This document shows, in pieces, positions 338 through 57,052 of a DNA stretch of 64,000 bases. A program made the position numbers and the translations under genes. The stretch lies in the sequence record PZ386975.1. One strand, written 5' to 3'. This stretch comes from a phage. The notes under the pieces are model-generated. The model searched no databases and had not been told where the DNA came from. It was given only the letters and a program-made list of their open reading frames with translations. Each line of letters starts with the position of its first letter. Position 1 is the stretch's first letter.

Positions 338-409
338 TTAGTTGATTGTTAAGTTGTTTGTAAAGAACCCTCAACAGAAGACTCTTTAGAAACTTGGTAG
401 ATTTTTAAC

Positions 410-650
410 GTGGCTACTACCATCCACCCATACCTCACATCACCATACCATACCATACCTGACCGGACCTAACCAAACTCCACAGCACCATACATCACAT
501 CACACAGCCTTATTAAAAGACCCTGTTTAAAGACCCTTTAAAAAGGTAAGTCTCATTTTAATGTAGCTGAGACTAACTACCCATACCAAACAGCACCGCA
601 CTATGCCTTACCCCACCTCACCGAGCCTCGCCCCACATCACTTAAAAACC
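410..650. repeat. strand-skewed low-complexity tract (CA-rich on plus, GT-rich on minus) with ATACC/ATCAC pentamer repeats
   Basis: Plus strand reads ccatccacccatacctcacatcaccataccataccatacc...; almost no G or T over about 240 bp, in an ORF-free gap between two minus-strand genes. Confidence 0.6.
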
Positions 651-738
651 CTTTTCAAAGACTCTTAAGTGATGTTGGTGAGTACCCGTTGGTTTATGCT
701 GCTCAGTATACTCACCAAATTTTCTATGTCAACAACTT

Positions 739-1878
739 TTACTCATAATCCCTAATAACTAGGCCAACAGGGAACTGTAAAGACCCCTTACGAGTCATCT
801 TCTGGAACTGAACCGTTAAAGGCTTCCCGATAAACTCTTCAGGATGCTCAGCCAGATACTGCTTTTTCTCATGAGTGGTTTTCCATGAGACATCTACAAA
901 GACGTTAGGAAGGGTCTCTACAACGAACTTGCCATGACCACGTTTATCAGTCTTTACACCAGTCACTTTAAACTCTTCAGTGTGCATCTTCTTATGCTTA
1001 ATCAAGAAGTATGAACGGTGACCGCACTCATAGAAAGATTCTTCAGAGATTGAACGGTACATTGCACCTTCAAACTTAGCCTCAACCCACTTATCATGAG
1101 CTTCATCAAACTCTTCCCAAGAATTTACACGGCGAGACTTAATAGGAACAACTTTACAGCCGTCTCTAAAGTCATTTAATGGTGAAGTCTCAATAATATC
1201 TCTACGCTCAGGCCACGTTTTAGTACTGTCACAGATATCATACCAGTAGAACTTAAGTAAGTGTCTGTCAGGATTGTCTTCATTTTTAATCATGGAGACA
1301 ATATCTTCTAAGTCCCACCCATGAGCATAAATCTCTCCATCAAATTCATCAACATCTTTGTGGAGCCTTAACATTGCCATAATGTCAGGTATTAGTTCAG
1401 TAGGGATTTTGTAAACAGTATTCTCACGAGAATATGCTGTAAATACACTGCCAATACTTAAGTGCCTTGAAATCCTACAACGTACACCATCAAGCTTCGG
1501 TTGAGCATCAGCAGGGAACTTCAGATACTTTGCATGACTAACCTTTGCAGCATCATGAGCAAGCTGTACACCTACCTTTTCAGTATTCTGTGCAGACTCT
1601 TTTGTGTAAGCATAACCTTTACGGTCAACTTGCTTTTTATACTTAGCAGCAACTTCAAAGAGAGCTTGCTGTTCAGCGTTACGCTCATTCTTTTTACCGA
1701 TGTTTTTAGGTTCTGCTGTATACTCTTCAAACATCATCTTGCCATTTTCTTTACCGTAGGTTGTAATAACTTTGTCACCTACAGCAACACATGACCAAAC
1801 GTTGAAGGAACCATCTTTATTTTGTTTGTATAGAATTGTCATTTTATTCCTCTGAGTGATACCAAGTATTGCAAGCAT
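739..1878 (-). CDS. ATP-dependent DNA ligase
   Basis: KxDG adenylation motif (PKLDGVRC); 379 aa, T7-ligase-like size. Confidence 0.75.
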   Translation of the reverse strand: MLAILGITQRNKMTILYKQNKDGSFNVWSCVAVGDKVITTYGKENGKMMFEEYTAEPKNIGKKNERNAEQQALFEVAAKYKKQVDRKGYAYTKESAQNTEKVGVQLAHDAAKVSHAKYLKFPADAQPKLDGVRCRISRHLSIGSVFTAYSRENTVYKIPTELIPDIMAMLRLHKDVDEFDGEIYAHGWDLEDIVSMIKNEDNPDRHLLKFYWYDICDSTKTWPERRDIIETSPLNDFRDGCKVVPIKSRRVNSWEEFDEAHDKWVEAKFEGAMYRSISEESFYECGHRSYFLIKHKKMHTEEFKVTGVKTDKRGHGKFVVETLPNVFVDVSWKTTHEKKQYLAEHPEEFIGKPLTVQFQKMTRKGSLQFPVGLVIRDYE

Positions 1879-2638: not shown

Positions 2639-2872
2639 TCATAGCAACTCCAGAATATCAATACGTTCACCCTTAAGAACACCTGTACGGTCTCTTGCAA
2701 TCTTACCATCAACGATAAGGATATGCGCGACCTTTAAAGCCTCACCATTAAAACCTTTTACGAACTTGCTAGGCATCACTACAATGGACATCTCCTGAAT
2801 CAACTCTGGAGTATAGCAATTGTCGTGAAGTTGCTGAATAACGTCTGCAAGTGTCATTTTTGATGTCTCCAA
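2639..2872 (-). CDS. hypothetical protein
   Basis: ORF in co-directional block. Confidence 0.35.
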   Translation of the reverse strand: METSKMTLADVIQQLHDNCYTPELIQEMSIVVMPSKFVKGFNGEALKVAHILIVDGKIARDRTGVLKGERIDILELL

Positions 2873-3063
2873 TACTCAATGTCAATAAGTTCTTGTGCAA
2901 TGCTTTTCAGATTACCTTTCAAGAAAACCTTCTCAGAACCTGAAAGAGATGAATTGTCAATTAACCTGTTCATTCTCTCAAACAACTTCTGCTTACGGTT
3001 CTTGATAGTTTCCTTTGAAGCACCTTTCATCATCGCTGCATGGGTTCTTCCACGGTGGCTCAT
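2854..3063 (-). CDS. hypothetical protein
   Basis: ORF in co-directional block. Confidence 0.3.
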   Translation of the reverse strand: MSHRGRTHAAMMKGASKETIKNRKQKLFERMNRLIDNSSLSGSEKVFLKGNLKSIAQELIDIEYWRHQK

Positions 3064-3124
3064 AAGCCCTCCTATACAAGATATAGTATAAGGTACTCTT
3101 CCATGAGCACCTTGTCAATACTAG

Positions 3125-3681
3125 TCAGTGTACTTCAAGCCAATTCTTACCAACTTTACCAGTACCAGTTACAAGCGTTTCCTCCTTAAGCCCTAAGTTT
3201 CTTGATGCCTGACCATACATCCAGTCAATCACTGCTTTAACATCCTGTGTCATCTCTTCTGGGCACTCCCAACTATTCTCATCGTGGTATGCTAAAAGCA
3301 ATCTAGCACCAATAGCTGGTTTTCGACCATTCAGCTTTGTAAGACCCTCTTCACAAGTCCTTCTACAAGCAAGGTTGATGGCTTCATTCTGAACCTGACT
3401 TTCCGAACCCATGAGCAAGTAATTTAAAAGTTTGTGCGGAGATTTACACCACAACCATGCACCTGCTACCTTTACAAAACCACCCTTAGATATTGCAGCA
3501 GTCTTACCAAACACCTCTTCAAGAGCCTTCTTAGTGGCTTTGAAGTCTGCTTCTAAATTATCTATCAACTTCTTAATTTTAGGGAGGCGTACAAAGTATG
3601 TTTGCTTAGTTAAAGCACCTTCCTCAGTTGTAGATGCTTTAATCGTCTTAGCAAATTTCTCATCGCCAGCCCCGAACAATA
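3125..3681 (-). CDS. DNA polymerase (family A, T7 gp5-like), C-terminal exon
   Basis: Begins (L)FGAGDEKFAK matching the end of pol A motif B (T7 FLYGAGDEK); contains motif C HDE (LLAYHDENSWECPEE). Confidence 0.65.
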
Positions 3682-4486
3682 CATCTGGTCAATACACTCG
3701 CAAGGTGTACCAGTTCTCTTATGAACTTCTCCGCATTTCTACGGAGTGTCGGACTATATCACGTAGTAGTAGTAATACTACCGTTGCACTTGGGAATGGT
3801 CATTAGCTTACCACCCTACTCTACTCAGTTCATACGTTAAGTATGCTTTTCGATAGTCTCTGAACGTTTCTCTGTTAGGAATCTCTATAGTTATGTTATT
3901 TGCTTAGGTAGTCAATTGCCCTTTGCATATTATCAATGCTATCTGCAAGTAACCCCAAAGCTCTATTGCAATTGTGGCACAACATGCCTCTTACTTTTCC
4001 GGTTTTGTGGTCATGGTCAACGACAAGTTTAGCCTTATGCCGTGAACTATTCATGATAAAACCTTCACCGCCACAAATTTGACATTTGTAATCACAGTTA
4101 CGAAGTAGGGTCTCAACCTCTTCTCTTTCTAAACCATATGTTCTCAGGTAGTAATTCTTAACTCTACCTTTCTCTCCACAATGCGAAGAACAATAAACTT
4201 GCCTTGCTGTTCTAGGCATGAACACCTTCTCACAGCTAGGACATTTCTTAGTAAGAACCCTATATTCTGCTCTTCTGTCAAATTTTAATACGCAACTTCT
4301 GCACCGTTTTTGATTGTATTGGTACGGTTTAAACTCCGTGCCACACTCAGTGCATAATCTCTCTTCGTAACCTGCCATTGTCTCTCTCCTTTGTTTTAGG
4401 AGTCCTAACAGAGACTTCGCTGCTGATTACCATATCTTTACAGACTTAGGCTTCCAGCAATTCACAACGTTTTACATGCGCCACTG
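3682..4486 (-). mobile_element. intervening sequence in DNA polymerase gene, probable group I intron carrying a homing endonuclease
   Basis: Polymerase reading frame interrupted inside motif B; joining exon 1 ending ...GCG T to exon 2 TA TTG TTC GGG restores GIYALLFGAGDEK, colinear with T7 FIYGFLYGAGDEK; upstream exon ends in U and the insert ends in G. Confidence 0.55.
3896..4378 (-). CDS. endonuclease VII-family (His-Me finger) homing endonuclease
   Basis: VVDHDHKTGKVRGMLCHNCNRALG matches the T4 endo VII core as recalled (HLDHDHELNG...GKVRGLLCNLCN); N-terminal Cys-rich zinc ribbon. Confidence 0.65.
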   Translation of the reverse strand: MAGYEERLCTECGTEFKPYQYNQKRCRSCVLKFDRRAEYRVLTKKCPSCEKVFMPRTARQVYCSSHCGEKGRVKNYYLRTYGLEREEVETLLRNCDYKCQICGGEGFIMNSSRHKAKLVVDHDHKTGKVRGMLCHNCNRALGLLADSIDNMQRAIDYLSK

Positions 4487-6659
4487 ACGCATAAATGCCA
4501 TTTTTGGCTTTCTTACGGCCTTTACTAATTTCCTGAAGAAGATTTGTATCCTGAGTGGCTCGACAGGTCAAGATATCTTCCTCTTTATTAAGGCTGAAGT
4601 AGATGCTATTTAAAGTATGCGCATCAGTTCCTGAGTACACCACGTACAAGTCATTTTCCGAATCATAATGCAAATACTTGTCAATCTCTGGGTTTAGATA
4701 CTGGTCAAAATGTTTGCAATAGTATCTGCCATCCTCTTGTTTGACAAACTCAACCTCTTCTTTACCCTCTGTCACTGCTTTAGTGAACTCCTTATCACCC
4801 ATAAAGTTGCACAGCAGCACAAGTTGGGCACTATTCATATCTGCTGAAACAATATTAGTTCCTTCCTCACAAGTCCACACCTCCCTCATAGGCGCTCCAT
4901 AGACAGCAGCACCAGACGGTACGTTTACAATACCATATTGTGTCATACGTCCAGTTGAAGTACCAAACACCATTGCACCAGCACTAAGGCGACCATCAGG
5001 ACGAATCTGGTTAAGCCAACCTTTTTCATCATCCTTTGAGTTCTCAATAGTTCTGCGTCGGTGCATCAAAGTGTAGTATTTCGCAATCTTCTGTCCAAGC
5101 TCACCTTCAATCGTATCATAAGATGATTCAGTAAGTTTTGGTGAAGTACGGATTAAGCAAGGTTCAAGCAAATCTGTGTATTTCTTCACAGACCAGTTAT
5201 GCTCAATGTACTGTACACCTTCATGTTCAACATAACTCAAACCACACCGCTCAACCATTTCCTGCCACTTAGGATGTTTTGTAATCATCTTTTTATTGTC
5301 TTTGAAACGACAAACTTTGACAGGGCGACCATCTGAGTCTTTCTTGTAGTTCCAGTCATCTGGAATCCAACCAACTGATTTCAAGTAGTCTTTAACAACT
5401 GCTACCTGAGTCATACGAGAAACTTCAAACTCAATTGGTGTATATGGTGCATCAATCAAACCTGTGTAGCGACTTGACTCAAGTTCAAAGTGGTTAACAA
5501 CGTGGCTGTTATAGTACTTCACAGTTTTGACTGTTTTTACTGGCTTCCAGTCTTTGCACTTCTTACCAATCTTTGCATTCAACTCATTGCAAATTGCACG
5601 AGCATCCTTCATTGCTACAAAACCTTCCTTGTACTCTTCACCAGTTACAGTGTTGGTTGGTGTATAGCAATTCCTTTTTTCAATGTTAAAAATCTTTGTA
5701 GTTGGCTTACCAAATGGTTTGATTTCATATGTTTGCATCTCACCGTTACGCACCTGCTGACGATACTTTGTCTTAGGGTACTTGGTAATTCTCTTCAGTC
5801 CATCTGCATGACCAAATGTTTCAACATACTCATTCCAAGCTTTTGCAAACTCTTCTCCAGTGACTTTACCTTTGGTCTTAATAGTTGGAGGTAGATGCGG
5901 TTCAACCTCTGAAGCAAGCTCATTAGTCAATTTGTCAAGTTCCTTCACATGGAACTCCATAAGCTCTTTATCAGCTTTCCAGCCATTAATAGCTTGTTGA
6001 CTCATCCAGAAAGATGTCTCTTTAGCTCGCATGTAAGTCTCATAAGTGTCTATACCACACTTCTTAAGCTTGAGATACTCGTTATCAAGTGCCCGTTTAG
6101 TTTTGGCGTTAATACGGATATCTTCTACAACACGAGTGAAGATTTCTGCATTCCACACACCCCAATGTTCAATCTCTGGTTTACGGACACCAACACGAGC
6201 ACCCCATGCAGCCAAACCATGAGCACCTTTATAACCCTTTGGAGTTGGTCTATCCATCCACTGAACACGAGACTGGATAAGAGAATCCTGAAAGAAATTA
6301 CTCCACGGCTTACATTTTGGATTATCAAAGTTCCATAAATCCGGTGCAATGTGATTGAAGACCCACCAGTCATAACCGAGGCCGTTATGGATACAAAGTC
6401 GTTTTGCCTTTAACGCAAACTCAACACCTTCACGTAAACCACCCTTGATGTACTTAGTGTACTTGTGACCGAGGATAGGCTCATCTGTAAAGACCCATAC
6501 AGGTGGCTCTTCATCGTCAGATTTATAGTCTGCAAAAGCCATTACGTGAACTTTAGTGAACTCAAGGAGTAAACCATCAGTCTCTGTATCACCAACTAAA
6601 TGTAAGTTTTTAAAATCTACGTTTTCCATTTTTACTCCCTCTAAAATCATTAACCTCAT
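4487..6659 (-). CDS. DNA polymerase (family A, T7 gp5-like), N-terminal exon with 3'-5' exonuclease domain
   Basis: Exo I VGDTETDG, Exo II HNGLGYD, pol motif A-like VSADMNSAQLVLL; colinear with T7 gp5 blocks (AHGLAAWG, APYTPIEF); annotated frame ends at an in-insert stop at 4446. Confidence 0.7.
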
Positions 6660-6689
6660 ACATTACTGCAAAAAATTATAAAAAGCAAG

Positions 6690-6718
6690 TTGACAATGCA
6701 CTTGACAAGGTGTTAATC
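6690..6718 (+). promoter_or_regulatory. sigma70-like promoter in divergent intergenic region
   Basis: TTGACA, 17 nt spacer, TTAATC; overlaps recurring ACTTGACAAGGTG motif. Confidence 0.4.
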
Positions 6719-6886
6719 TTTGCGAAGTGGGTTTTTACTTAAAAGGTTACTTAACAGTTTAACTATACAGATACTTTAAAACTCTTAAAAGATTATTTAA
6801 TAGCTTTTAAAAAGCTTTAAAGTATAACGTATAGAATACGTTAAGATAAAAGATTAAAACTTAATAGTTACTTAAAAGAGGCTTAC

Positions 6887-7309
6887 ATGCAGAAAATGTT
6901 TGTTCACCCAGACATAGCTGACTTTGTTAGAGCTTTGCAGAAGTTGGAAGAACTTGACATTGCTGCTCAACGGGAATATGCTCACCATCACAGGAGAATG
7001 GTTGATATACAACATGAAATAGAGTTGTCTGAAGACTATGAAGATGACTTAAAATGCTCTGTATTTGAGCATATGAAAGATGTTGCTACAGCGAGACGTA
7101 AAGCTAAAGACACAGTTGCTTTACTAGATTCTCTTAAAAAGAGGTTGCAAAGTGGTACAGACCTGTGTAATCTAGCATCACTGATTAACGATGTTGAAAC
7201 TTCTTGGGATAGGCACTATTATCCACGTTCTGAAAAGACACTTGACTTTTCTTCATCAGAAAACTTAAAATGTTCTAGAAAGAAGCTTAACCAACTGAGA
7301 GAGAAATAA
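6887..7309 (+). CDS. hypothetical protein
   Basis: First ORF of plus block, preceded by AT-rich promoter region. Confidence 0.4.
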   Translation: MQKMFVHPDIADFVRALQKLEELDIAAQREYAHHHRRMVDIQHEIELSEDYEDDLKCSVFEHMKDVATARRKAKDTVALLDSLKKRLQSGTDLCNLASLINDVETSWDRHYYPRSEKTLDFSSSENLKCSRKKLNQLREK

Positions 7310-20298: not shown

Positions 20299-21498
20299 AT
20301 GAACAAAGTACAGATTATTAAAAAGAATGGCTCACTCGAAGAACCTGATATCAAAAAAGTTTTAGCAGCAGTCACAAAGTCAGCTAATAGGGTTGGGTAT
20401 AAAGAACTCCCACCAGATGTTACTCAAGCTCTTGAGTCAGCATTTATGAGGATTCTGGTAAAGTCCACTAAGCAGAATAATTTGCTAATTTCTGTAAACG
20501 ATATTCACAGTATTGTTGAGGGTGCTTTGGCAGAAGTCAATCACGAAATTTATGAGTCTTACTCAACATACAGAAATTACCGTAAAGAAGTTGCTCAAAA
20601 TTGGGATGAACTCTACCAGAAGACCAAAGATACACTCTTCTTAGGTGACAGAGAGAATGCTAACTTTGACAGCAGTTTAATTTCTACAAAAGGCTCAATT
20701 ATTCGTGGTTACCTGACTAAAGAAATCTTTAAACAGTACCATTTAACACCAGAGGAACTTGAAGCCATTGAAAAAGGGTTTATCTATATCCATGATTTAA
20801 GAGACCTAATTTTTGGTGGTATCAACTGTTGCCTGTTTGACATTGGTAAAGTCCTGAAAGGTGGCTTTGAAATGTCTGGCATCGAATATTGTGAACCAAA
20901 GTCTGTGCTGTCGGCCTTACAGGTTATTGGTGACGTAGTTCTTTCAGCAACTGCACAGCAATTTGGTGGCTTTACTTTAGCAGAGATTGATAAGGTACTC
21001 GTACCGTATGCTAAGAAGTCTCTACGCTATCATGCTGAGAAAGCAGCATCTTATGGTATTCCTAAAGAACATTACCACAATTATATCATGGAGCAGCTAC
21101 AGATTGAACTGACTCAAGGTTTCCAGTCACTTGAAATGAAACTCAATACTGTGCCTTGTAGCCGTGGGGATTTTGCATTTACAACTTTGACATTCGGGTT
21201 ACTTGATTCAGATATGTCTAATGAAGATAACCGACTGCAATACATGATTGCAAGTACTCTCCTAGATGTTCGTATGAATGGACAAGGTAAGAGCAAGAAG
21301 CCTGTTGTATTCCCTAAACTGGTTTATATTTATGACCAGAAGAGACACGATGAGAATATCTGTCAAGGACACCTGTACAGTAAAGCCATTGAGTGTTGCT
21401 CTAAAGCAATGTATCCAGATTTCTTAAGTGTATCTGGTCATGGTGCTGTAGCAGAGGCTTTTGAGCGTTCTGGTAAGGTTATTTCACCGATGGGTTAA
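20299..21498 (+). CDS. nrdD: anaerobic ribonucleotide reductase (class III), exon 1
   Basis: Ends ...ISPMG at a position that in E. coli NrdD is followed by CRSFL; stop codon lies in the insert. Confidence 0.65.
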   Translation: MNKVQIIKKNGSLEEPDIKKVLAAVTKSANRVGYKELPPDVTQALESAFMRILVKSTKQNNLLISVNDIHSIVEGALAEVNHEIYESYSTYRNYRKEVAQNWDELYQKTKDTLFLGDRENANFDSSLISTKGSIIRGYLTKEIFKQYHLTPEELEAIEKGFIYIHDLRDLIFGGINCCLFDIGKVLKGGFEMSGIEYCEPKSVLSALQVIGDVVLSATAQQFGGFTLAEIDKVLVPYAKKSLRYHAEKAASYGIPKEHYHNYIMEQLQIELTQGFQSLEMKLNTVPCSRGDFAFTTLTFGLLDSDMSNEDNRLQYMIASTLLDVRMNGQGKSKKPVVFPKLVYIYDQKRHDENICQGHLYSKAIECCSKAMYPDFLSVSGHGAVAEAFERSGKVISPMG

Positions 21499-22237
21499 CA
21501 AGCTCTATAGCTCATCTAAAACGTGCCTAAACAGGGAAACTCTACAGATGTAGACAATCCTGTGCTAAATGATGTACGATGTAAGAAACTATACAACATA
21601 GGAGTCTTACATGCCAAACTATCACGTCACTGAAGATGGAAAAGTCTTTAGGGAAAATGGTGTAGAGCTTACGCAGTGGAAATCCAACACTGGGTATATG
21701 AAAGTGAGGTTTTACGGTAAGAAGAATCGTGACATGTATGTCCACAGGTTAGTTGCTGAGAAATATGTACCTAACCCGAATAATCTTCCAATTGTAAAAC
21801 ATAAGGACGATAACAAACTAAATAACCACGCATCTAACTTAGAATGGGGTACTCATTCTGAGAATGCTAAAGAAGGTTATGAGAACGGTTGCTACAAGTT
21901 CCACAAGCGTTCATATGCCGTGAAAGCCACACACAAAGTGACAAGGGAAGTTATTGTTACTAAGTCAATACGAGAGTTATCCAATATACTTGGACACAAT
22001 CGCAAGACCATCTCTTCAATATTGAAGGGTGTAAAAGAGCATAATAACTTCGAATATGAGTTTGAATACATCTAAATGCCGAACGACTAACCGTGATGAA
22101 TGTAGCGGTGTAGGGTCAAGCGACTCGAAATGGTACGCTACTTAGAAATAAGTAGAAGATATAGTCTGGACTTACTGGCGACAGTAAGCAGCTTGAATAA
22201 AGCGGGGTAAGCTTAGCGAACTTACCTGAACAACAAG
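21499..22237 (+). mobile_element. intervening sequence in nrdD, probable group I intron carrying an HNH endonuclease
   Basis: Exon 1 ends in T; in-frame sequence CRAFLSPYLNENGEEFYVGRANIGAVSLNLP resumes at 22238; insert ends in G. Confidence 0.55.
21611..22075 (+). CDS. HNH homing endonuclease (intron-encoded)
   Basis: IVKHKDDNKLNNHASNLEWGTHSEN HNH motif. Confidence 0.65.
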   Translation: MPNYHVTEDGKVFRENGVELTQWKSNTGYMKVRFYGKKNRDMYVHRLVAEKYVPNPNNLPIVKHKDDNKLNNHASNLEWGTHSENAKEGYENGCYKFHKRSYAVKATHKVTREVIVTKSIRELSNILGHNRKTISSILKGVKEHNNFEYEFEYI

Positions 22238-23185
22238 TGTAGAGCATTTTTATCACCATATCTTAACGAGAATGGGGAAGAGTTCTATGTAGGTCGTGCT
22301 AACATTGGTGCTGTGTCTTTGAACTTACCAATGATTTACCAGTATTCTAAAGAGAATGAATTAGATTTCTGGAAAGAGCTTGATAAGTACCTAGAAATGA
22401 TTCGCAGCTTCCACAAGAAACGTTACGAAATGATTGCTAATATGCCAGCAAGTTCTAACCCTCTTGCGTTCACACAAGGTGGTCTGTACAAAGGGAATAA
22501 GAAACCTACTGACAGGGTTGGCTGGGATATCGTGAAGTCCTTCACAGCTTCTTTTGGGGTTACTGCGCTTGATGAGCTATCTGTTCTTGCTGAAGGTAAA
22601 CGACTTCATGAAGTTGGAAGCTGTAGTTTTGCATACGATGTTCTGGAATACATCAACATGAAAACTGAAGAGTTTAAAAATGAAGATGGCTTCTTATATG
22701 CCGTCTATGGTACTCCAGCAGAATCACTTTGTGGAACTCAGCTAAAACAGTTCAGAGATATGTTTGGCGTTATCAAAGGTGTTTCTGATAAGGAATACTT
22801 TACAAACAGCTTCCATATGAATGTTGCAGCAGACATTACACCATTTGAGAAGCAGGACTTAGAAGAACCCTTCTTCCATATCTGTAGAGGCGGTAGAATC
22901 CAGTATGTAAGAGTGGCTAATCCAGAAAACTTATCAGCACTTAAGAGTTGTATTACGAGAGGTATGTTGAAAGGTTTCTATCAGGGACTGAACTTTGACT
23001 TAGCAATCTGTGAACATTGCGGTAACAGACCAAAGGCTGATGTTGAAGAATGTGAGGTTTGTCATTCACATGATATCTCTGTGATTAACAGGGTGTGCGG
23101 GTATCTCGGGTGGACTAAGATTAAAGGCGAATCCCGAATGAATGATGCAAAAATCGCTGAGATTCGTGACAGAGTTTCTATGTAA
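22238..23185 (+). CDS. nrdD: anaerobic ribonucleotide reductase (class III), exon 2
   Basis: Contains glycyl-radical region NRVCGYLG near C-terminus; frame is open upstream of the annotated GTG at 22313. Confidence 0.65.
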   Translation, partial: CRAFLSPYLNENGEEFYVGRANIGAVSLNLPMIYQYSKENELDFWKELDKYLEMIRSFHKKRYEMIANMPASSNPLAFTQGGLYKGNKKPTDRVGWDIVKSFTASFGVTALDELSVLAEGKRLHEVGSCSFAYDVLEYINMKTEEFKNEDGFLYAVYGTPAESLCGTQLKQFRDMFGVIKGVSDKEYFTNSFHMNVAADITPFEKQDLEEPFFHICRGGRIQYVRVANPENLSALKSCITRGMLKGFYQGLNFDLAICEHCGNRPKADVEECEVCHSHDISVINRVCGYLGWTKIKGESRMNDAKIAEIRDRVSM

Positions 23186-55052: not shown

Positions 55053-55129
55053 CTCTGTTTAGCTCAGCTTGGTAGAGCGTTCCGTTTGGGGCGGTAAGGC
55101 CGGAGGTTCAAGTCCTCCAACAGAGACCA
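55053..55129 (+). tRNA. tRNA-Pro (TGG), tentative
   Basis: 7 bp acceptor ctctgtt/aacagag, T-arm ggaggttcaagtcctcc, encoded CCA. Confidence 0.6.
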
Positions 55130-55146
55130 AATTTAAAGGGGTTACT

Positions 55147-55503
55147 ATGAGATTTTTAAAAGAATGTCCAGTTCATGGTTTAACTGAACATAGCATTCAT
55201 AAGAATGGTAACGCCGGTAATAGAGTAAATTGTCTAAAATGTTGTGCATTAAGGACAAAACTTAGAGAGGATGCCAATAGGGAGAAAGCATACAAGTTTT
55301 ATGGCGATAGTTGCAAAATTTGTGGCTATAATAAATGTAAAAATGCTTTAGAATGGCATCACCTTAACCCAAACGAAAAAGAGAATACACCATCAAAAAT
55401 TATGGGTGCATCTTGGGAAAAGGTTAAAAAAGAACTTGATAAATGTGTTTTGCTCTGTGCTAATTGCCACAGAGAGGTTCATAGTGGAATTACAACGGTT
55501 TAA
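55147..55503 (+). CDS. HNH endonuclease inside tRNA cluster
   Basis: CKICG...EWHHLNP...CANCHREVH; start moved to MRFLKE because annotated start overlaps a tRNA. Confidence 0.55.
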   Translation: MRFLKECPVHGLTEHSIHKNGNAGNRVNCLKCCALRTKLREDANREKAYKFYGDSCKICGYNKCKNALEWHHLNPNEKENTPSKIMGASWEKVKKELDKCVLLCANCHREVHSGITTV

Positions 55504-55504
55504 T

Positions 55505-55579
55505 GTCGTAGAAGGCAAATGGTTAGCCACCTGACCTTCAATCAGTTGCTCGCAGGTTCGAATCCTGTCTACGACACCA
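55505..55579 (+). tRNA. tRNA, anticodon possibly TTC (Glu)
   Basis: Acceptor gtcgtag/ctacgac, T-arm gcaggttcgaatcctgt, CCA. Confidence 0.5.
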
Positions 55580-55586
55580 GTTTTGA

Positions 55587-55659
55587 CAGAAGACCAATTA
55601 CAGCAAACTTAATCTTATTCATCTGAAGGTAAATCGGACAAAGAAGAGATTTGGTCTGG
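55587..55659 (+). ncRNA. conserved stem element A (CAGAAGACCA ... TTGGTCTGG)
   Basis: Member of a 4-copy family with covarying closing stem and conserved TACAGCAA. Confidence 0.35.
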
Positions 55660-55670
55660 TCATTAAGAAT

Positions 55671-55747
55671 TGCGGGTATAGAGAAAGGGCGTCTCACATG
55701 TCTCATTAGCATGGTATCGGCAGGTTCGACTCCTGCACCCGCCTCCA
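55671..55747 (+). tRNA. tRNA-Met-like (CAT), non-canonical 1:72 pair
   Basis: Anticodon loop ctcatta, T-arm gcaggttcgactcctgc, CCA; acceptor pairing imperfect. Confidence 0.4.
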
Positions 55748-55753
55748 ATTTTG

Positions 55754-55813
55754 CAGAAGACCGTATTCAGCAACAAACTACTTTTTGCGGATAAAAGAAA
55801 AAACACGGTCTGG
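55754..55813 (+). ncRNA. conserved stem element B (CAGAAGACCG ... CGGTCTGG)
   Basis: Covarying G-C in place of A-T relative to element A. Confidence 0.35.
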
Positions 55814-55824
55814 CAATGTATTAA

Positions 55825-55901
55825 GGTTAGGAAGCACATAAGGTATGTGCGGTCGCCTGTTAAGCGAATGGCACAGGGTTCGAATCCCTGACTAACCGCC
55901 A
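55825..55901 (+). tRNA. tRNA-Asn (GTT)
   Basis: Acceptor ggttagg/actaacc, anticodon loop ctgttaa, T-arm cagggttcgaatccctg, CCA. Confidence 0.6.
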
Positions 55902-55970
55902 AATTTAGGAGAGAAGCGATTGCTCACCGATTTGTAAGGTGCAAGTCCTTAGCCTGAATAGAAATTAAAT

Positions 55971-56058
55971 GTGTCGTTATCCCGTAGATGGTAGCGGTGG
56001 GGACTGTAAATCCCTTGTCATTGAGACTCGGTAGGTTCGACTCCTACACGGCACACCA
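55971..56058 (+). tRNA. tRNA-Tyr (GTA), long variable arm
   Basis: Acceptor gtgtcgt/acggcac, anticodon loop ctgtaaa, T-arm gtaggttcgactcctac, CCA. Confidence 0.6.
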
Positions 56059-56063
56059 ATAAA

Positions 56064-56141
56064 GGTTATGTAGTTTAATTTGGTTAAAATACTCCCCTGT
56101 CACGGGAGATGATGAGGGTTCAAATCCCTTCGTAACCGCCA
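56064..56141 (+). tRNA. tRNA-Asp (GTC)
   Basis: Acceptor ggttatg/cgtaacc, anticodon stem-loop ctccc ctgtcac gggag, CCA. Confidence 0.65.
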
Positions 56142-56202
56142 ATTTTGAGAGGGCTATTTAGCCCCTCCCTTAAAGGGTTCTTACGAGTATCCTTTAAAGG
56201 AG

Positions 56203-56278
56203 CAGAAGACCAAATACAGCAAGAACGTATGAAAATTTCAAGCCAATTTAATTTTGAAAAATTTAAAACTTGGTCTGG
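56203..56278 (+). ncRNA. conserved stem element C (CAGAAGACCA ... TTGGTCTGG)
   Basis: Same family as A, B, D. Confidence 0.35.
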
Positions 56279-56291
56279 CTCAACAAATTTA

Positions 56292-56422
56292 CAGAAGACC
56301 GTTTACAGCAAAACTTAAACAATCTATTTCTCGGTAAAGAAAAGGCGAAGGTTCGATTCCTTCACTCGGCAGATGTCGAGTTGGTGTAATGGTAGCACTT
56401 AAGATGATAAACAACGGTCTGG
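56292..56422 (+). ncRNA. candidate Y-RNA-like ncRNA (element D) with permuted tRNA-like module
   Basis: Closing stem CAGAAGACCG/CGGTCTGG; internal T-arm gaaggttcgattccttc, acceptor-like hairpin actcggc-agat-gtcgagt, then D-arm-like ggtgtaatggtagcac; no conventional 5' acceptor partner. Confidence 0.4.
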
Positions 56423-56424
56423 TA

Positions 56425-56566
56425 ATTATCTTTGTAGATAAGTTATTAAGCTTACCTGTGAGTATGCGACCACAAAGGGTGAAAGGGTAAATTCTAGATT
56501 TAAACCCAAAAAGGCACATCGCTACAGACCTTAAGCAAGTCTGGGTAGCTTATCTACAAAGATAAT
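56425..56566 (+). repeat. 18 bp perfect inverted repeat enclosing about 106 nt
   Basis: attatctttgtagataag at 56425-56442 and its exact reverse complement at 56549-56566. Confidence 0.6.
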
Positions 56567-56571
56567 TTAAT

Positions 56572-56647
56572 GGAAGTGTAGCAGAATGGTGATGCGGCAG
56601 ACTTTTAATCTGACAGGCGATGGGTTCGAATCCCTCCACTTCTACCA
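56572..56647 (+). tRNA. tRNA-Lys (TTT)
   Basis: Acceptor ggaagtg/cacttct, anticodon loop cttttaa, T-loop ttcgaat, CCA. Confidence 0.55.
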
Positions 56648-56651
56648 AAAT

Positions 56652-56728
56652 GGTTCAGTCGCAGATAAGGTAATTCAAGGGTCTCATAAGACCTATGAAT
56701 GTGGGTTCGATTCCCATCTGAACCTCCA
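56652..56728 (+). tRNA. tRNA-Met or Ile2 (CAT)
   Basis: Exact 7 bp acceptor ggttcag/ctgaacc, anticodon loop ctcataa, CCA. Confidence 0.6.
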
Positions 56729-56730
56729 AT

Positions 56731-56805
56731 TGTGGGTTAGCATAAATGGTAATGCAAACGGCTGATAACCGTTAGAAGAGGGTTCGATACCCTCACCTAC
56801 AACCA
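56731..56805 (+). tRNA. tRNA-Ile (GAT)
   Basis: Anticodon stem-loop aacgg ctgataa ccgtt, T-arm gagggttcgataccctc, CCA. Confidence 0.65.
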
Positions 56806-56820
56806 ATTTCAATAAAGTTG

Positions 56821-56849
56821 TTGACATTGAGATGTGACTACTTTATAGT
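56821..56849 (+). promoter_or_regulatory. sigma70-like promoter inside tRNA cluster
   Basis: TTGACA, 17 nt spacer, TATAGT. Confidence 0.55.
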
Positions 56850-57052
56850 AACCTTAGTTTTCGTTGCGTAGCGTCTATTTTGCAAATTTAAAATAAATGC
56901 AAACGACAATGTTTTTCTGGCAGTAGCTTGATAGGCTAAACACCAGTGAGGTCTTCCAATCCCTCATCAAAGAATTTGGCGTACTAGCCCACGGTATGAT
57001 TAATAAAGTGGGCATCTTTAAGGGCTTTCTAAGAGAGTCTTTAAAGATTAAT

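Follow-up and report, generated by a model that had tools for sequence, protein, structure and literature searches.

The interrupted DNA polymerase gene

The window analyzed here, i.e., the entire 64,000-nucleotide stretch of DNA to which all positions refer, comes from a Felixounavirus and shares 96.8% identity with Salmonella phage Si3. On its minus strand lies a family-A DNA polymerase gene that is interrupted by an 805-nt insert, with breaks at 4487|4486 and 3682|3681. The program-made list of ORFs gives at this locus a 737-aa ORF that ends inside the insert (4446..6659, minus strand; C-terminal end ...AKNGIYASVAHVKRCELLEA*), a 160-aa ORF lying within the insert (3896..4378, minus strand), and a 184-aa ORF with a TTG start and the N-terminus (M)FGAGDEK (3125..3679, minus strand). 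We parsed the locus into the following features:

4487..6659, minus strand: DNA polymerase exon 1 (ORF list; gapless alignment to intron-less alleles)
3682..4486, minus strand: predicted group I intron, 805 nt, IA2-like (Rfam RF00028; boundaries in relatives; length relative to intron-less alleles)
3896..4378, minus strand: putative homing endonuclease gene, 160 aa (Pfam PF02945; PDB matches; ORF of Yersinia phage Berlin)
3125..3681, minus strand: DNA polymerase exon 2 (ORF list; Pfam; PHROG; T7 gp5 alignment)

Exon 1 matches the PHROG DNA polymerase family phrog_17 (9.8e-82), and its last base, U4487, opens a Leu codon that the insert splits. The ORF list starts this gene mechanically at ATG 6659; we consider ATG 6629 (MENVDF) the likelier start because it is preceded by GGGAG and yields a joined polymerase of 899 aa, equal in length to that of phage NBEco005. 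Exon 2 opens with the UA that finishes the split UUA Leu codon, continues as LFGAGDEK... and extends through motif C (HDE) to a stop codon at 3127-3125; it corresponds to positions 218-380 of the Pfam DNA_pol_A profile and to phrog_6375 (2.4e-86).

Joining T4487 to T3681-A3680 produces a 2730-nt in-frame CDS that reads ...GIYALLFGAGDEK..., and the gene with the insert removed aligns without gaps to the uninterrupted alleles of Felix O1 (...TACGCCCTGTTATTT...) and NBEco005 (...TATGCACTACTGTTC...). Over the compared interval these alleles are exactly 805 bp shorter (2996 vs 3801 bp), which is the length of the insert. The alignment to T7 gp5 (PDB 6n7w) runs across the junction without a break (GRKKAKNGIYALLFGAGDEK vs T7 517 TRDNAKTFIYGFLYGAGDEK) and also matches the motif C HDE further on; therefore, the split falls inside motif B/O-helix, at the codon that corresponds to T7 F528. 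The first-pass annotation had proposed this split within motif B and the same join, with a 737-aa ORF ending in the insert and a 184-aa ORF that begins with FGAGDEK and carries motif C, and it had pointed to the terminal U of exon 1 and the terminal G (3682) of the insert; all of these points stand.

Conserved catalytic motifs of replication enzymes are typical intein sites, and the position of the insert would suit an intein or another in-frame protein-level insertion. We rejected this reading on the basis of the reading frames and regard it as vanishingly improbable: the insert is out of frame, with the exon-1 frame meeting a UAA (4448-4446) after 13 codons; moreover, the nuclease ORF has a start of its own and a Pfam search recovered no Hint/intein domain.

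Structure of the insert and comparison with the group I intron model

The insert begins with CAGUGGCGCAUG... and ends with ...GACCAGAUG, G3682 being the terminal guanosine (omega-G), and these boundaries are identical in 10 relatives. We modeled its RNA with the following elements:

4476..4492, minus strand: P1 (sequence inspection; pair counts in 9 copies)
4419..4469, minus strand: 5' core (Rfam P4-P6 alignment, 24.6 bits; Rfam alignment on L007; pair counts)
4469-4465, minus strand: P3 5' strand, CGUUG
4459-4454 with 4426-4421, minus strand: P4, UGCUGG/UCAGCA
4450-4430, minus strand: P5, with a GUAA tetraloop
4420-4419 and 3865-3864, minus strand: P6 5' strand and 3' strand
4403..4414 and 3880-3869, minus strand: P6a 5' arm UCUCUGUUAGGA and 3' arm UCCUAACAGAGA
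3682..3880, minus strand: 3' core (Rfam alignments; hand model checked by pair counts)
3858-3854, minus strand: P7 GACUA (with J6/7)
3845-3831, minus strand: P7.1
3816-3792, minus strand: P7.2
3786-3782, minus strand: P3 3' strand, CAACG
3781-3763, minus strand: P8
3756-3752, minus strand: P7' UAGUC (with J8/7 GUGAUA)
3746-3729, minus strand: P9, with a GAAA loop
3726-3713, minus strand: P9.1
3712-3686, minus strand: P9.2

In P1, the exon sequence AUGCGU (4492-4487) is matched to the internal guide GCGCAU (4481-4476), which places a U4487.G4481 pair at the 5' splice site, and in P10 the loop CAGUG (4486-4482) is matched to UAUUG of exon 2 (3681-3677). P6a is a 12-bp helix with a 520-nt loop that houses the nuclease gene, and its arms border the nuclease ORF in every ORF-containing copy. 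The model has no P2. For the structure alignment, the ORF was removed by explicit cuts at the P6a arms, and the 'UNVERIFIED' records GE_vB_NS7 and GE_vB_B3 were left out on account of apparent indel errors. Pairwise MAFFT alignment against the copy of phage warpig was discarded as a means of ORF removal, having misplaced the large gap in four sequences.

All P1 and P10 pairs are standard and none varies in 9/9 copies, and omega-G, like P10, is found in every one of them. Across the 9 copies, 99.9% of the cells of the 84-pair hand model are paired vs 30-45% in slid controls, a comparison in which the model was drawn from the same 9 sequences (~95% identical) that were used for the pair counts. 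As a result of this high identity, 78 of the 84 pairs are invariant, and the covariation support is thin; it comprises two compensatory UA<->CG changes, one in P6a (base pair 83-116) and one in P8, along with GU->GC / AU->GU changes in P5 and P8. Extra hairpins P7.1 and P7.2, placed after P7 and before the P3 3' strand, mark the phage-type subgroup IA2; the hand model shows two hairpins in this position, which are fully paired and invariant in the 9 copies. An MFE fold of a 288-nt ORF-less RNA recovered P1, P4, P5, P7.1, P7.2, P8, P9, and P9.1; its gain in stability over shuffles was not significant (z = -1.65), and we therefore did not count thermodynamic stability as evidence. The P8 loop of the window copy is also longer by 3 nt (UAC).

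The first-pass annotation had called for a covariance-model search of 3682-4486. With Rfam RF00028 (curated gathering score 50 bits), this search retrieved partial matches to P4-P6 (4369-4459, 24.6 bits) and to the 3' core (3729-4062, 17.9 bits; GUUCAGAGACUA, GAUAUAGUCC, and P9), both of which fall short of the gathering score because the 520-nt ORF loop divides the core. When all 64 kb of the window were scanned, E<=1 was reached by just two group I signals, namely the P4-P6 match of the insert and a second one located at the split nrdD gene. Natural ORF-less copies from sister phages (267–311 nt), which occupy the same site with identical boundaries, score 64.2, 63.3, 63.3, and 52.7 bits with the same model. 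In the stretches that they have in common, the window ribozyme segments and the ORF-less copies of 268 and 311 nt show ~95-99% identity; given its own sub-threshold scores, the membership of the window copy in RF00028 is assigned through this near-identity of its ribozyme arms to above-threshold copies.

These data also bear on an alternative in which the polymerase gene is genuinely split, with the insert being either what remains of a defunct intron or simply an inserted nuclease gene, and an N-terminal polypeptide of ~727-737 aa associating non-covalently with a C-terminal one of 184 aa. Such non-covalent association has been reported for some nuclease-split phage genes, and the two separate ORFs, the two 'DNA polymerase' CDSs annotated in most GenBank records, and the sub-threshold score of the window copy would all fit it. 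We nevertheless hold it to be highly improbable and side with the first-pass annotation in favoring a group I intron over a simple split gene: the orthologous ORF-less copies exceed the Rfam threshold; no copy in the structure model has lost P1 with its U.G, P10, or omega-G; the ribozyme arms are better conserved than the surrounding coding sequences; and the middle of the O-helix/motif B would be a poor place for a non-covalent split. Further, on sequence inspection the C-terminal fragment has only TTG 3679 as a start, with no Shine-Dalgarno sequence upstream, making its independent translation unlikely, and an ATG close by (3684-3682) lies in another frame. A scan of 3000-7000 for promoters and terminators found no terminators, and promoter-like sites were less frequent than in shuffled sequence; it offers no support for exon 2 or the nuclease gene being transcribed separately.

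A further observation was counted against the intron: the UAA that closes the exon-1 frame lies within P5, 13 codons inside the insert, so that ribosomes on unspliced RNA would enter P1-P4. The predicted products are a ligated-exon RNA with the junction ...UAUGCGU|UAUUGUUC... and a joined polymerase of ~103 kDa with the junction peptide ...NGIYALLFGAGDEK..., vs separate fragments of ~82 and ~21 kDa for a split gene.

The nuclease encoded within the insert

The 160-aa ORF encodes a member of the Pfam Endonuclease_7 family (PF02945: E=4.5e-20, 71.8 bits vs a cutoff of 23.6), in keeping with the earlier call of an endo VII-type His-Me finger nuclease in the insert. Its N-terminus contains two CxxC...CxxC zinc-ribbon-like modules and its C-terminus an Endo VII/His-Me finger domain with D121, H122, H124, R130, and N138; alignment to T4 endonuclease VII additionally identifies Cys99/102/134/137 as the zinc-binding cysteines. 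Matches in the PDB include Hpy99I (1.8e-5) and T4 endonuclease VII (1e7d; 3.4e-3), with the DHDH...R...N residues aligned. Based on these features, we predict that it is an Endo VII-motif (His-Me finger, 'DHHRN' family) homing endonuclease. An AGGAG (4390-4386) is situated 7 nt upstream of its AUG. A CUCCU/AGGAG hairpin predicted over this ribosome-binding site is not significant (z = -0.91); that it hides the site may be offered as a speculation from the folding model.

Alternatively, the intron might splice while the Endo VII-type ORF no longer specifies a working homing enzyme, being either in decay or kept for another role, e.g., splicing assistance. Homing endonuclease genes are known to pass through a cycle of gain, decay, and loss, and the commonness of the 267-311-nt ORF-less forms, which indicates that the ORF is dispensable, and its break into two ORFs in phage VpaE1, the one decayed copy known, are consistent with such a cycle. 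For the window copy we consider this unlikely: its ORF is intact and preceded by the above AGGAG, and all the aligned catalytic and zinc-binding residues are kept. Likewise, the ORFs of FSL SP-010 and S.Kent remain intact (160-161 aa) at 73-81% DNA identity, which argues for selection on the protein.

Distribution and mobility

About 100 of the 262 phage records matching the polymerase contain the insert, 41 of them in the full form with the nuclease gene and ~59 in the ORF-less form, while the remaining polymerase matches are without the intron; thus, a single polymerase site displays three allele states. Sequence identity is higher in the ribozyme (91–97%) than in the nuclease ORF (73–81%) or the flanking exons (~76–80%); for instance, between the window and FSL SP-010 it amounts to 91-92% in the ribozyme, 73% in the ORF, and 76% in the exons. 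The intron is found in at least four exon backgrounds, which are 73-80% identical to one another, and some intron-plus alleles are nearest to intron-less ones (warpig/NBEco005, 90%; fBSPA4/Felix O1, 92%). The sequence TATGCGT|TATTGTT is common to all intron-plus alleles, whereas intron-less alleles differ there at synonymous sites. Like the optional elements associated with Endo VII-motif homing endonucleases, the insert is present or absent among homologous alleles and bears signs of lateral spread; its presence/absence across diverged exon backgrounds is the pattern that would be expected from homing.

Relationship to known phage introns

The intron element is already known from sister phages. 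Fang & Zeng 2018 (PMC6083498) list the nucleases of JH2, EC6, and FSL SP-010 as intron-encoded members of the DHHRN family, and the announcement of phage Meda (PMC6486253) describes a polymerase intron without an endonuclease ORF. The sister Felixounaviruses share the identical insertion site and boundaries, with ribozymes 91-99% and Endo VII-type ORFs 73-97% identical, and we found nothing essential that sets them apart. Our search of the literature found no splicing experiment for any Felixounavirus.

Yersinia phage Berlin likewise has an insertion in motif B of a family-A polymerase gene, with an RF00028 signal below the gathering score (26.0 bits) and a homologous nuclease ORF (49% identity over 116 aa) inside its annotated polymerase intron; both introns contain exactly the same J8/7-P7' string (GAUAUAGUC) and P9.1 hairpin (GUUCAUAAGAGAAC). 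However, Berlin is a podovirus, unlike the myovirus considered here, its intron is 680 nt long, its ORF shows DHCR instead of DHDH, and the two insertion sites lie 11 nt apart: the Berlin intron interrupts the F codon in AKTF|IYGF (TT|T), and the Felixounavirus intron the codon that corresponds to T7 F528 (U|UA).

Pf-WMP3 (I-PfoP3I; PMC3428280), SPO1, SP82, and Bastille also carry self-splicing IA2 introns with His-Me/HNH-type endonuclease ORFs in phage family-A polymerase genes. As in our model, the Pf-WMP3 intron is without P2 and has its ORF in P6a (PMC3428280), and, as cited in the same source, the PhiI/W31 ORF likewise lies in P6a. These systems differ in their polymerase insertion sites and in having classic HNH nicking enzymes as opposed to an Endo VII-motif enzyme; they are also backed by experimental splicing and cleavage data, whereas for the Felixounavirus intron splicing and cleavage are predictions. 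The catalytic motif family of the predicted nuclease, D-H-H-R-N, aligned here to T4 endonuclease VII, is shared with F-CphI of cyanophage S-PM2, the founding DHHRN/Endo VII-motif homing endonuclease (PMC6083498); however, F-CphI is free-standing and lies beside an intron-containing psbA, whereas the Felixounavirus enzyme is encoded inside the intron.

Interpretation and significance

In our interpretation, the insert is a mobile, IA2-like group I intron of phage type for which we predict self-splicing and a homing nuclease; we assign this reading a probability of roughly 0.9. The polymerase gene would be transcribed as a single pre-mRNA, in which the intron RNA would fold such that P1 (AUGCGU/GCGCAU, with U.G at the cleavage site) positions the 5' splice site and P10 the 3' exon. 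Using an external guanosine, the intron would probably excise itself after G3682, and ligation of the exons (...GIYA-L-LFGAGDEK...) would give the full-length polymerase of ~899 aa. The nuclease gene in the P6a loop would be expressed in a free-standing style from its own Shine-Dalgarno sequence. In mixed infections, we infer that the nuclease would nick or cut intron-less polymerase alleles near the insertion site, and that repair from an intron-plus allele would transfer the intron, together with a few adjacent exon bases, to the allele that was cut.

In some Felixounavirus genomes, the polymerase gene is bordered at its 3' end by unrelated free-standing HNH genes, and upstream of the insertion site, at a distance of ~400 nt, there is a sharp recombination boundary. 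A tentative extension, for which we see some room, would take the nuclease-bearing, ORF-less, and intron-less states along with these HNH genes as a live homing-cycle or 'collaborative homing' system, and the intron of the T7-like phage Berlin as a related intron and nuclease pair retargeted to a site 11 nt away. Two nuclease families would then compete or cooperate on the polymerase gene and could drive the recombination boundary. If true, this would provide a tractable E. coli/Salmonella model for target-site shifts of intron-nuclease pairs.

The main practical value of these findings lies in annotation, since the ~100 related GenBank records are inconsistent: most give the polymerase as two proteins (two CDSs) or drop the second exon, which in Seyj1-1 is missing altogether. 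A better annotation would be one joined CDS (6629..4487 + 3681..3125, minus strand), an intron, and a homing endonuclease gene. The polymerase intron raises no new question in itself; it adds another case in which a group I intron targets the catalytic motif that is most conserved in a replication enzyme, and it offers a clean natural example, with many representatives, of how homing endonuclease genes are gained, decay, and are lost, in hosts that are easily grown coliphages and Salmonella phages used for biocontrol.

The interrupted polymerase gene

All sequence details of the first-pass annotation proved correct on inspection of the sequence, and the minus strand of 3125-6659 holds three ORFs. 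The locus is organized as follows:

4446..6659, minus strand: 737-aa ORF, N-terminal part of a family-A DNA polymerase (PHROG phrog_17, 9.8e-82)
4486..3682, minus strand: 805-nt insert, ending ...CCAGAUG (sequence inspection)
3896..4378, minus strand: 160-aa ORF; matches Pfam PF02945 (recombination endonuclease VII) at 4.5e-20 and 71.8 bits (cutoff 23.6)
3125..3679, minus strand: 184-aa ORF with a TTG start, polymerase C-terminus (phrog_6375 at 2.4e-86; positions 218-380 of the Pfam DNA_pol_A profile)

Exon 1 ends in ...GGC AUU UAU GCG U (last base 4487) and exon 2 begins with UA UUG UUC GGG... (first base 3681), such that the upstream exon terminates in U and the insert in G (3682), as had been noted. 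The window belongs to a Felixounavirus with Salmonella phages SBA-1781 and Si3 as its best match (96.8%), and many relatives, e.g., Felix O1 (906 aa) and NBEco005 (899 aa), possess an uninterrupted polymerase; in these two the locus spans 2996 bp versus 3801 bp in the window, a difference of exactly 805 bp. The proposed joining restores the polymerase: the joined CDS of 2730 nt is in frame, and its alignment with Felix O1 and NBEco005 crosses the junction gap-free, with Y-A-L-L-F-G encoded in all. The predicted spliced protein also aligns continuously with T7 gp5, for which structures are solved (GRKKAKNGIYALLFGAGDEK opposite T7 517-TRDNAKTFIYGFLYGAGDEK; the HDE of motif C is likewise aligned), which places the interruption in motif B, as claimed earlier, within the O-helix and at the codon corresponding to T7 F528. 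The polymerase itself probably starts at the ATG at 6629 rather than at the ATG of the mechanical ORF at 6659: the former has a GGGAG Shine-Dalgarno sequence upstream, yields an 899-aa product of the same length as that of NBEco005, and matches the annotated start in Si3.

It is unlikely that the gene is truly split and yields two polypeptides: exon 2 lacks a usable start signal, the break falls mid-helix, and the ribozyme is both intact and conserved (see below). An intein was also considered and is ruled out by the reading frames.

GenBank annotation of this locus varies across relatives between two polymerases, hypothetical proteins, and one polymerase; in the record of Salmonella phage vB Seyj1-1 (locus record L016, own numbering, 3105-3930), the second polymerase exon is wholly unannotated. 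This inconsistency is a systematic problem.

Evidence that the insert is a group I intron

In the window itself, the Rfam group I model RF00028 (curated threshold 50 bits) recovered only two sub-threshold partial matches: one to P4-P6 (4369-4459, 24.6 bits) and another (17.9 bits) holding the hallmark strings GUUCAGAGACUA (J6/7-P7) and GAUAUAGUCC (J8/7-P7') as well as P9. A permissive scan (E<=1) of the whole 64-kb window revealed no signals beyond the P4-P6 match of the insert and the split nrdD gene; with just two signals in 64 kb, the insert matches are not background. The low score of the window copy stems from a 520-nt loop containing the nuclease gene. An insert-only search retrieved about 100 phage records with the insert, of which 41 are full-length and the others natural ORF-less forms of ~311 nt (warpig, Mushroom) or ~268 nt (A132, SUT_S820, fBSPA4); boundaries are the same in all sequenced copies (UAUGCGU|CAGUGGCGCAUG...GACCAGAUG|UAUUGUU). 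The compact copies score above the curated threshold (64.2, 63.3, 63.3, and 52.7 bits; E ~1e-14). The covariance-model check suggested earlier thus gave scores above the threshold for the compact orthologues and partial matches below it for the window copy.

Using Rfam alignments and inspection, we obtained a predicted secondary structure that is complete from P1 to the terminal G:

Elements of the structure model (minus strand)
P1: AUGCGU/GCGCAU, with U4487.G4481 at the 5' splice site
P10: CAGUG/UAUUG
P2: absent
P3: CGUUG/CAACG
P4: UGCUGG/UCAGCA
P5: GUAA tetraloop at its tip; relatives have UAAA or GAGA
P6, then 12-bp P6a: UCUCUGUUAGGA/UCCUAACAGAGA; the P6a loop contains the ORF
P7: GACUA/UAGUC
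P7.1 and P7.2: two hairpins between P7 and the P3 3' strand
P8, P9 (GAAA loop), P9.1, P9.2: downstream of the P3 3' strand
Terminal G: 3682

In this model, the P7.1/P7.2 pair would be the signature of subgroup IA. Pairs were counted across nine aligned copies after removal of the ORF loop at the P6a arms: 99.9% of 735 pair cells hold standard pairs, versus 30-45% with partners slid by 1-3 columns. Compensatory UA<->CG changes occur at two pairs (P6a 83-116 and P8 211-218) and GU->GC or AU->GU changes at two more; 78 of the 84 model pairs are invariant, owing to the ~95% identity of the copies. As the model was drawn from the very sequences used for these counts, few pairs vary, and the MFE stability of the folded intron RNA was not significant, the independent support comes from the Rfam score and not from covariation.

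The non-coding arms are the best conserved part of the locus, as a functional ribozyme predicts: between the window and FSL SP-010, identity is 76-77% in the flanking exons, 73% in the nuclease ORF, and 91-92% in the ribozyme segments; for S.Kent, the respective values are 76-80%, 81%, and 93-97%. Together, the exact junction, the compact copies passing the Rfam threshold, the complete structure model, and these conserved arms support the original interpretation of the insert as a group I intron.

The intron-encoded nuclease

The endonuclease VII-type nuclease reported within the insert is upheld by the Pfam match and by alignment of its C-terminal Endo VII/His-Me finger domain with T4 endonuclease VII and Hpy99I, in which D121, H122, H124, R130, and N138 are in place, as are the zinc cysteines. 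N-terminal to this are two CxxC...CxxC modules, putative DNA-binding zinc ribbons, for which the sole Pfam support is a weak zf match (E=0.0018). An AGGAG lies 7 nt 5' of the AUG. The nuclease may well still be active: its ORF is intact, the catalytic residues are kept, and the ORF has persisted at 73-81% DNA identity.

In the T7-like Yersinia phage Berlin, whose polymerase is a joined CDS in GenBank, the polymerase intron contains an ORF that shares 49% identity with this protein over 116 aa (E=7e-41). Our reconstruction of the Berlin splice gives a 680-nt intron and an in-frame 704-aa product, with the junction in codon F of AKTF|IYGF. Thus, the two phages carry related intron-nuclease pairs in the same motif, with insertion sites 11 nt apart.

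Allele states and mobility

The intron is present in at least four exon backgrounds, mutually just 73-80% identical (matrix of 780-nt exon flanks), and some intron-plus alleles have an intron-less one as their nearest relative: warpig (90% to NBEco005) and fBSPA4 (92% to Felix O1). Every intron-plus allele has the junction TATGCGT|TATTGTT, and intron-less alleles have TATGCAC|TACTGTT, TACGCCC|TGTTATT, or TATGCAC|TGCTATT, all differences being synonymous; the P1- and P10-pairing bases therefore travel with the intron. About 400 nt upstream of the site, the DNA identity between the polymerase gene of the window and intron-less alleles drops sharply from 94-97% to ~75%, and stays low from about 4890 to the gene end at 3125. 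The drop suggests a boundary of recombination or co-conversion tied to the mobile element. The original Felix O1 paper reportedly found zero introns, which is correct since that phage carries the empty allele.

In VpaE1 (L012, 509-969), the intron is 780 nt long and its nuclease gene is disrupted, leaving two overlapping ORFs. The 311-nt form of warpig (L004, 2615-2925) retains the P6a arms and the final ORF codons and could have arisen by deletion between CCUAA repeats, and the 268-nt form of A132 (L007, 401-668) has a short P6a with a UUAA cap. These loci show the nuclease gene at different stages of decay. As judged from sequence comparison, the HEG-containing, ORF-less, and empty alleles, the decayed VpaE1 nuclease gene, and the multiple exon backgrounds are the picture of classic homing and the homing-endonuclease life cycle.

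Unrelated free-standing HNH/'homing endonuclease' genes adjoin or overlap the polymerase 3' end in three relatives:

Felix O1, L002 3353-3856: empty allele
warpig, L004 3469-4005: ORF-less intron
Si3, L005 4131-4484: full intron

No such gene was found 3' of the polymerase in the window (2854-3124). Two nuclease families may act on the polymerase gene.

Other loci

A second gene of the window, nrdD (20299-23185, plus strand), is also split:

20299..21498, plus strand: nrdD N-terminal part (Pfam NRDD positions 1-250 of 562, plus ATP-cone)
21611..22075, plus strand: HNH_3 endonuclease ORF, within the split
22313..23185, plus strand: nrdD C-terminal part (NRDD positions 283-560 of 562, plus Gly_radical)

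A sub-threshold RF00028 match here (22008..22188, 33.1 bits) includes GAAGAUAUAGUCU and P9; a second group I intron with a homing endonuclease gene probably interrupts nrdD here, in agreement with the interrupted nrdD reported in UAB_Phi87 and Meda (Meda: PMC6486253).

The window also has 23 tRNA genes above the Rfam gathering score, clustered on the plus strand at 55053-60305; such a cluster is typical of Felix O1-like phages.

The Erwinia phage MIF8 (Schitoviridae; L015, 1455-1702) yielded a strong RF00028 match (94.4 bits, E=2.4e-24), which begins at the annotated end of an 'RNAP2-like protein' CDS (375..1466), the intron being unannotated there; over 65 nt of the P3-P5 region, it shares 81.5% identity with the polymerase intron of the window. 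In this N4-like phage, the gene for the virion-associated RNA polymerase subunit is probably interrupted and mis-annotated.

Relationship to known elements

Phage family-A polymerase genes are well known to harbor group IA2 introns that carry His-Me/HNH nuclease ORFs, e.g., in SPO1, Bastille, PhiI/W31, phiL7, and Pf-WMP3 (PMC3428280; PMC11878797); P6a is the site of the ORF in PhiI/W31 and Pf-WMP3 (PMC3428280). Fang and Zeng (2018) treated the Endo VII-motif proteins of JH2, EC6, FSL SP-010, and 2 JES-2013 as encoded by introns and as belonging to their DHHRN homing-endonuclease family, and placed the Berlin, YpP-G, and LUZ24 nucleases in polymerase introns (PMC6083498). We found the insert of the window in JH2, EC6, and FSL SP-010 too. 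The Meda genome announcement mentions a polymerase intron without an endonuclease (PMC6486253), and the SPJ41 paper two introns from an ncRNA scan (PMC9951933). Our search of the literature turned up no experiment that shows splicing or cleavage by the Felixounavirus element. The element is already known and of a well-known kind; the observation is confirmed and its interpretation supported. Its residual value lies in the correct annotation, namely one joined polymerase CDS together with the intron and its homing endonuclease gene, and in offering a handy natural system for homing dynamics.
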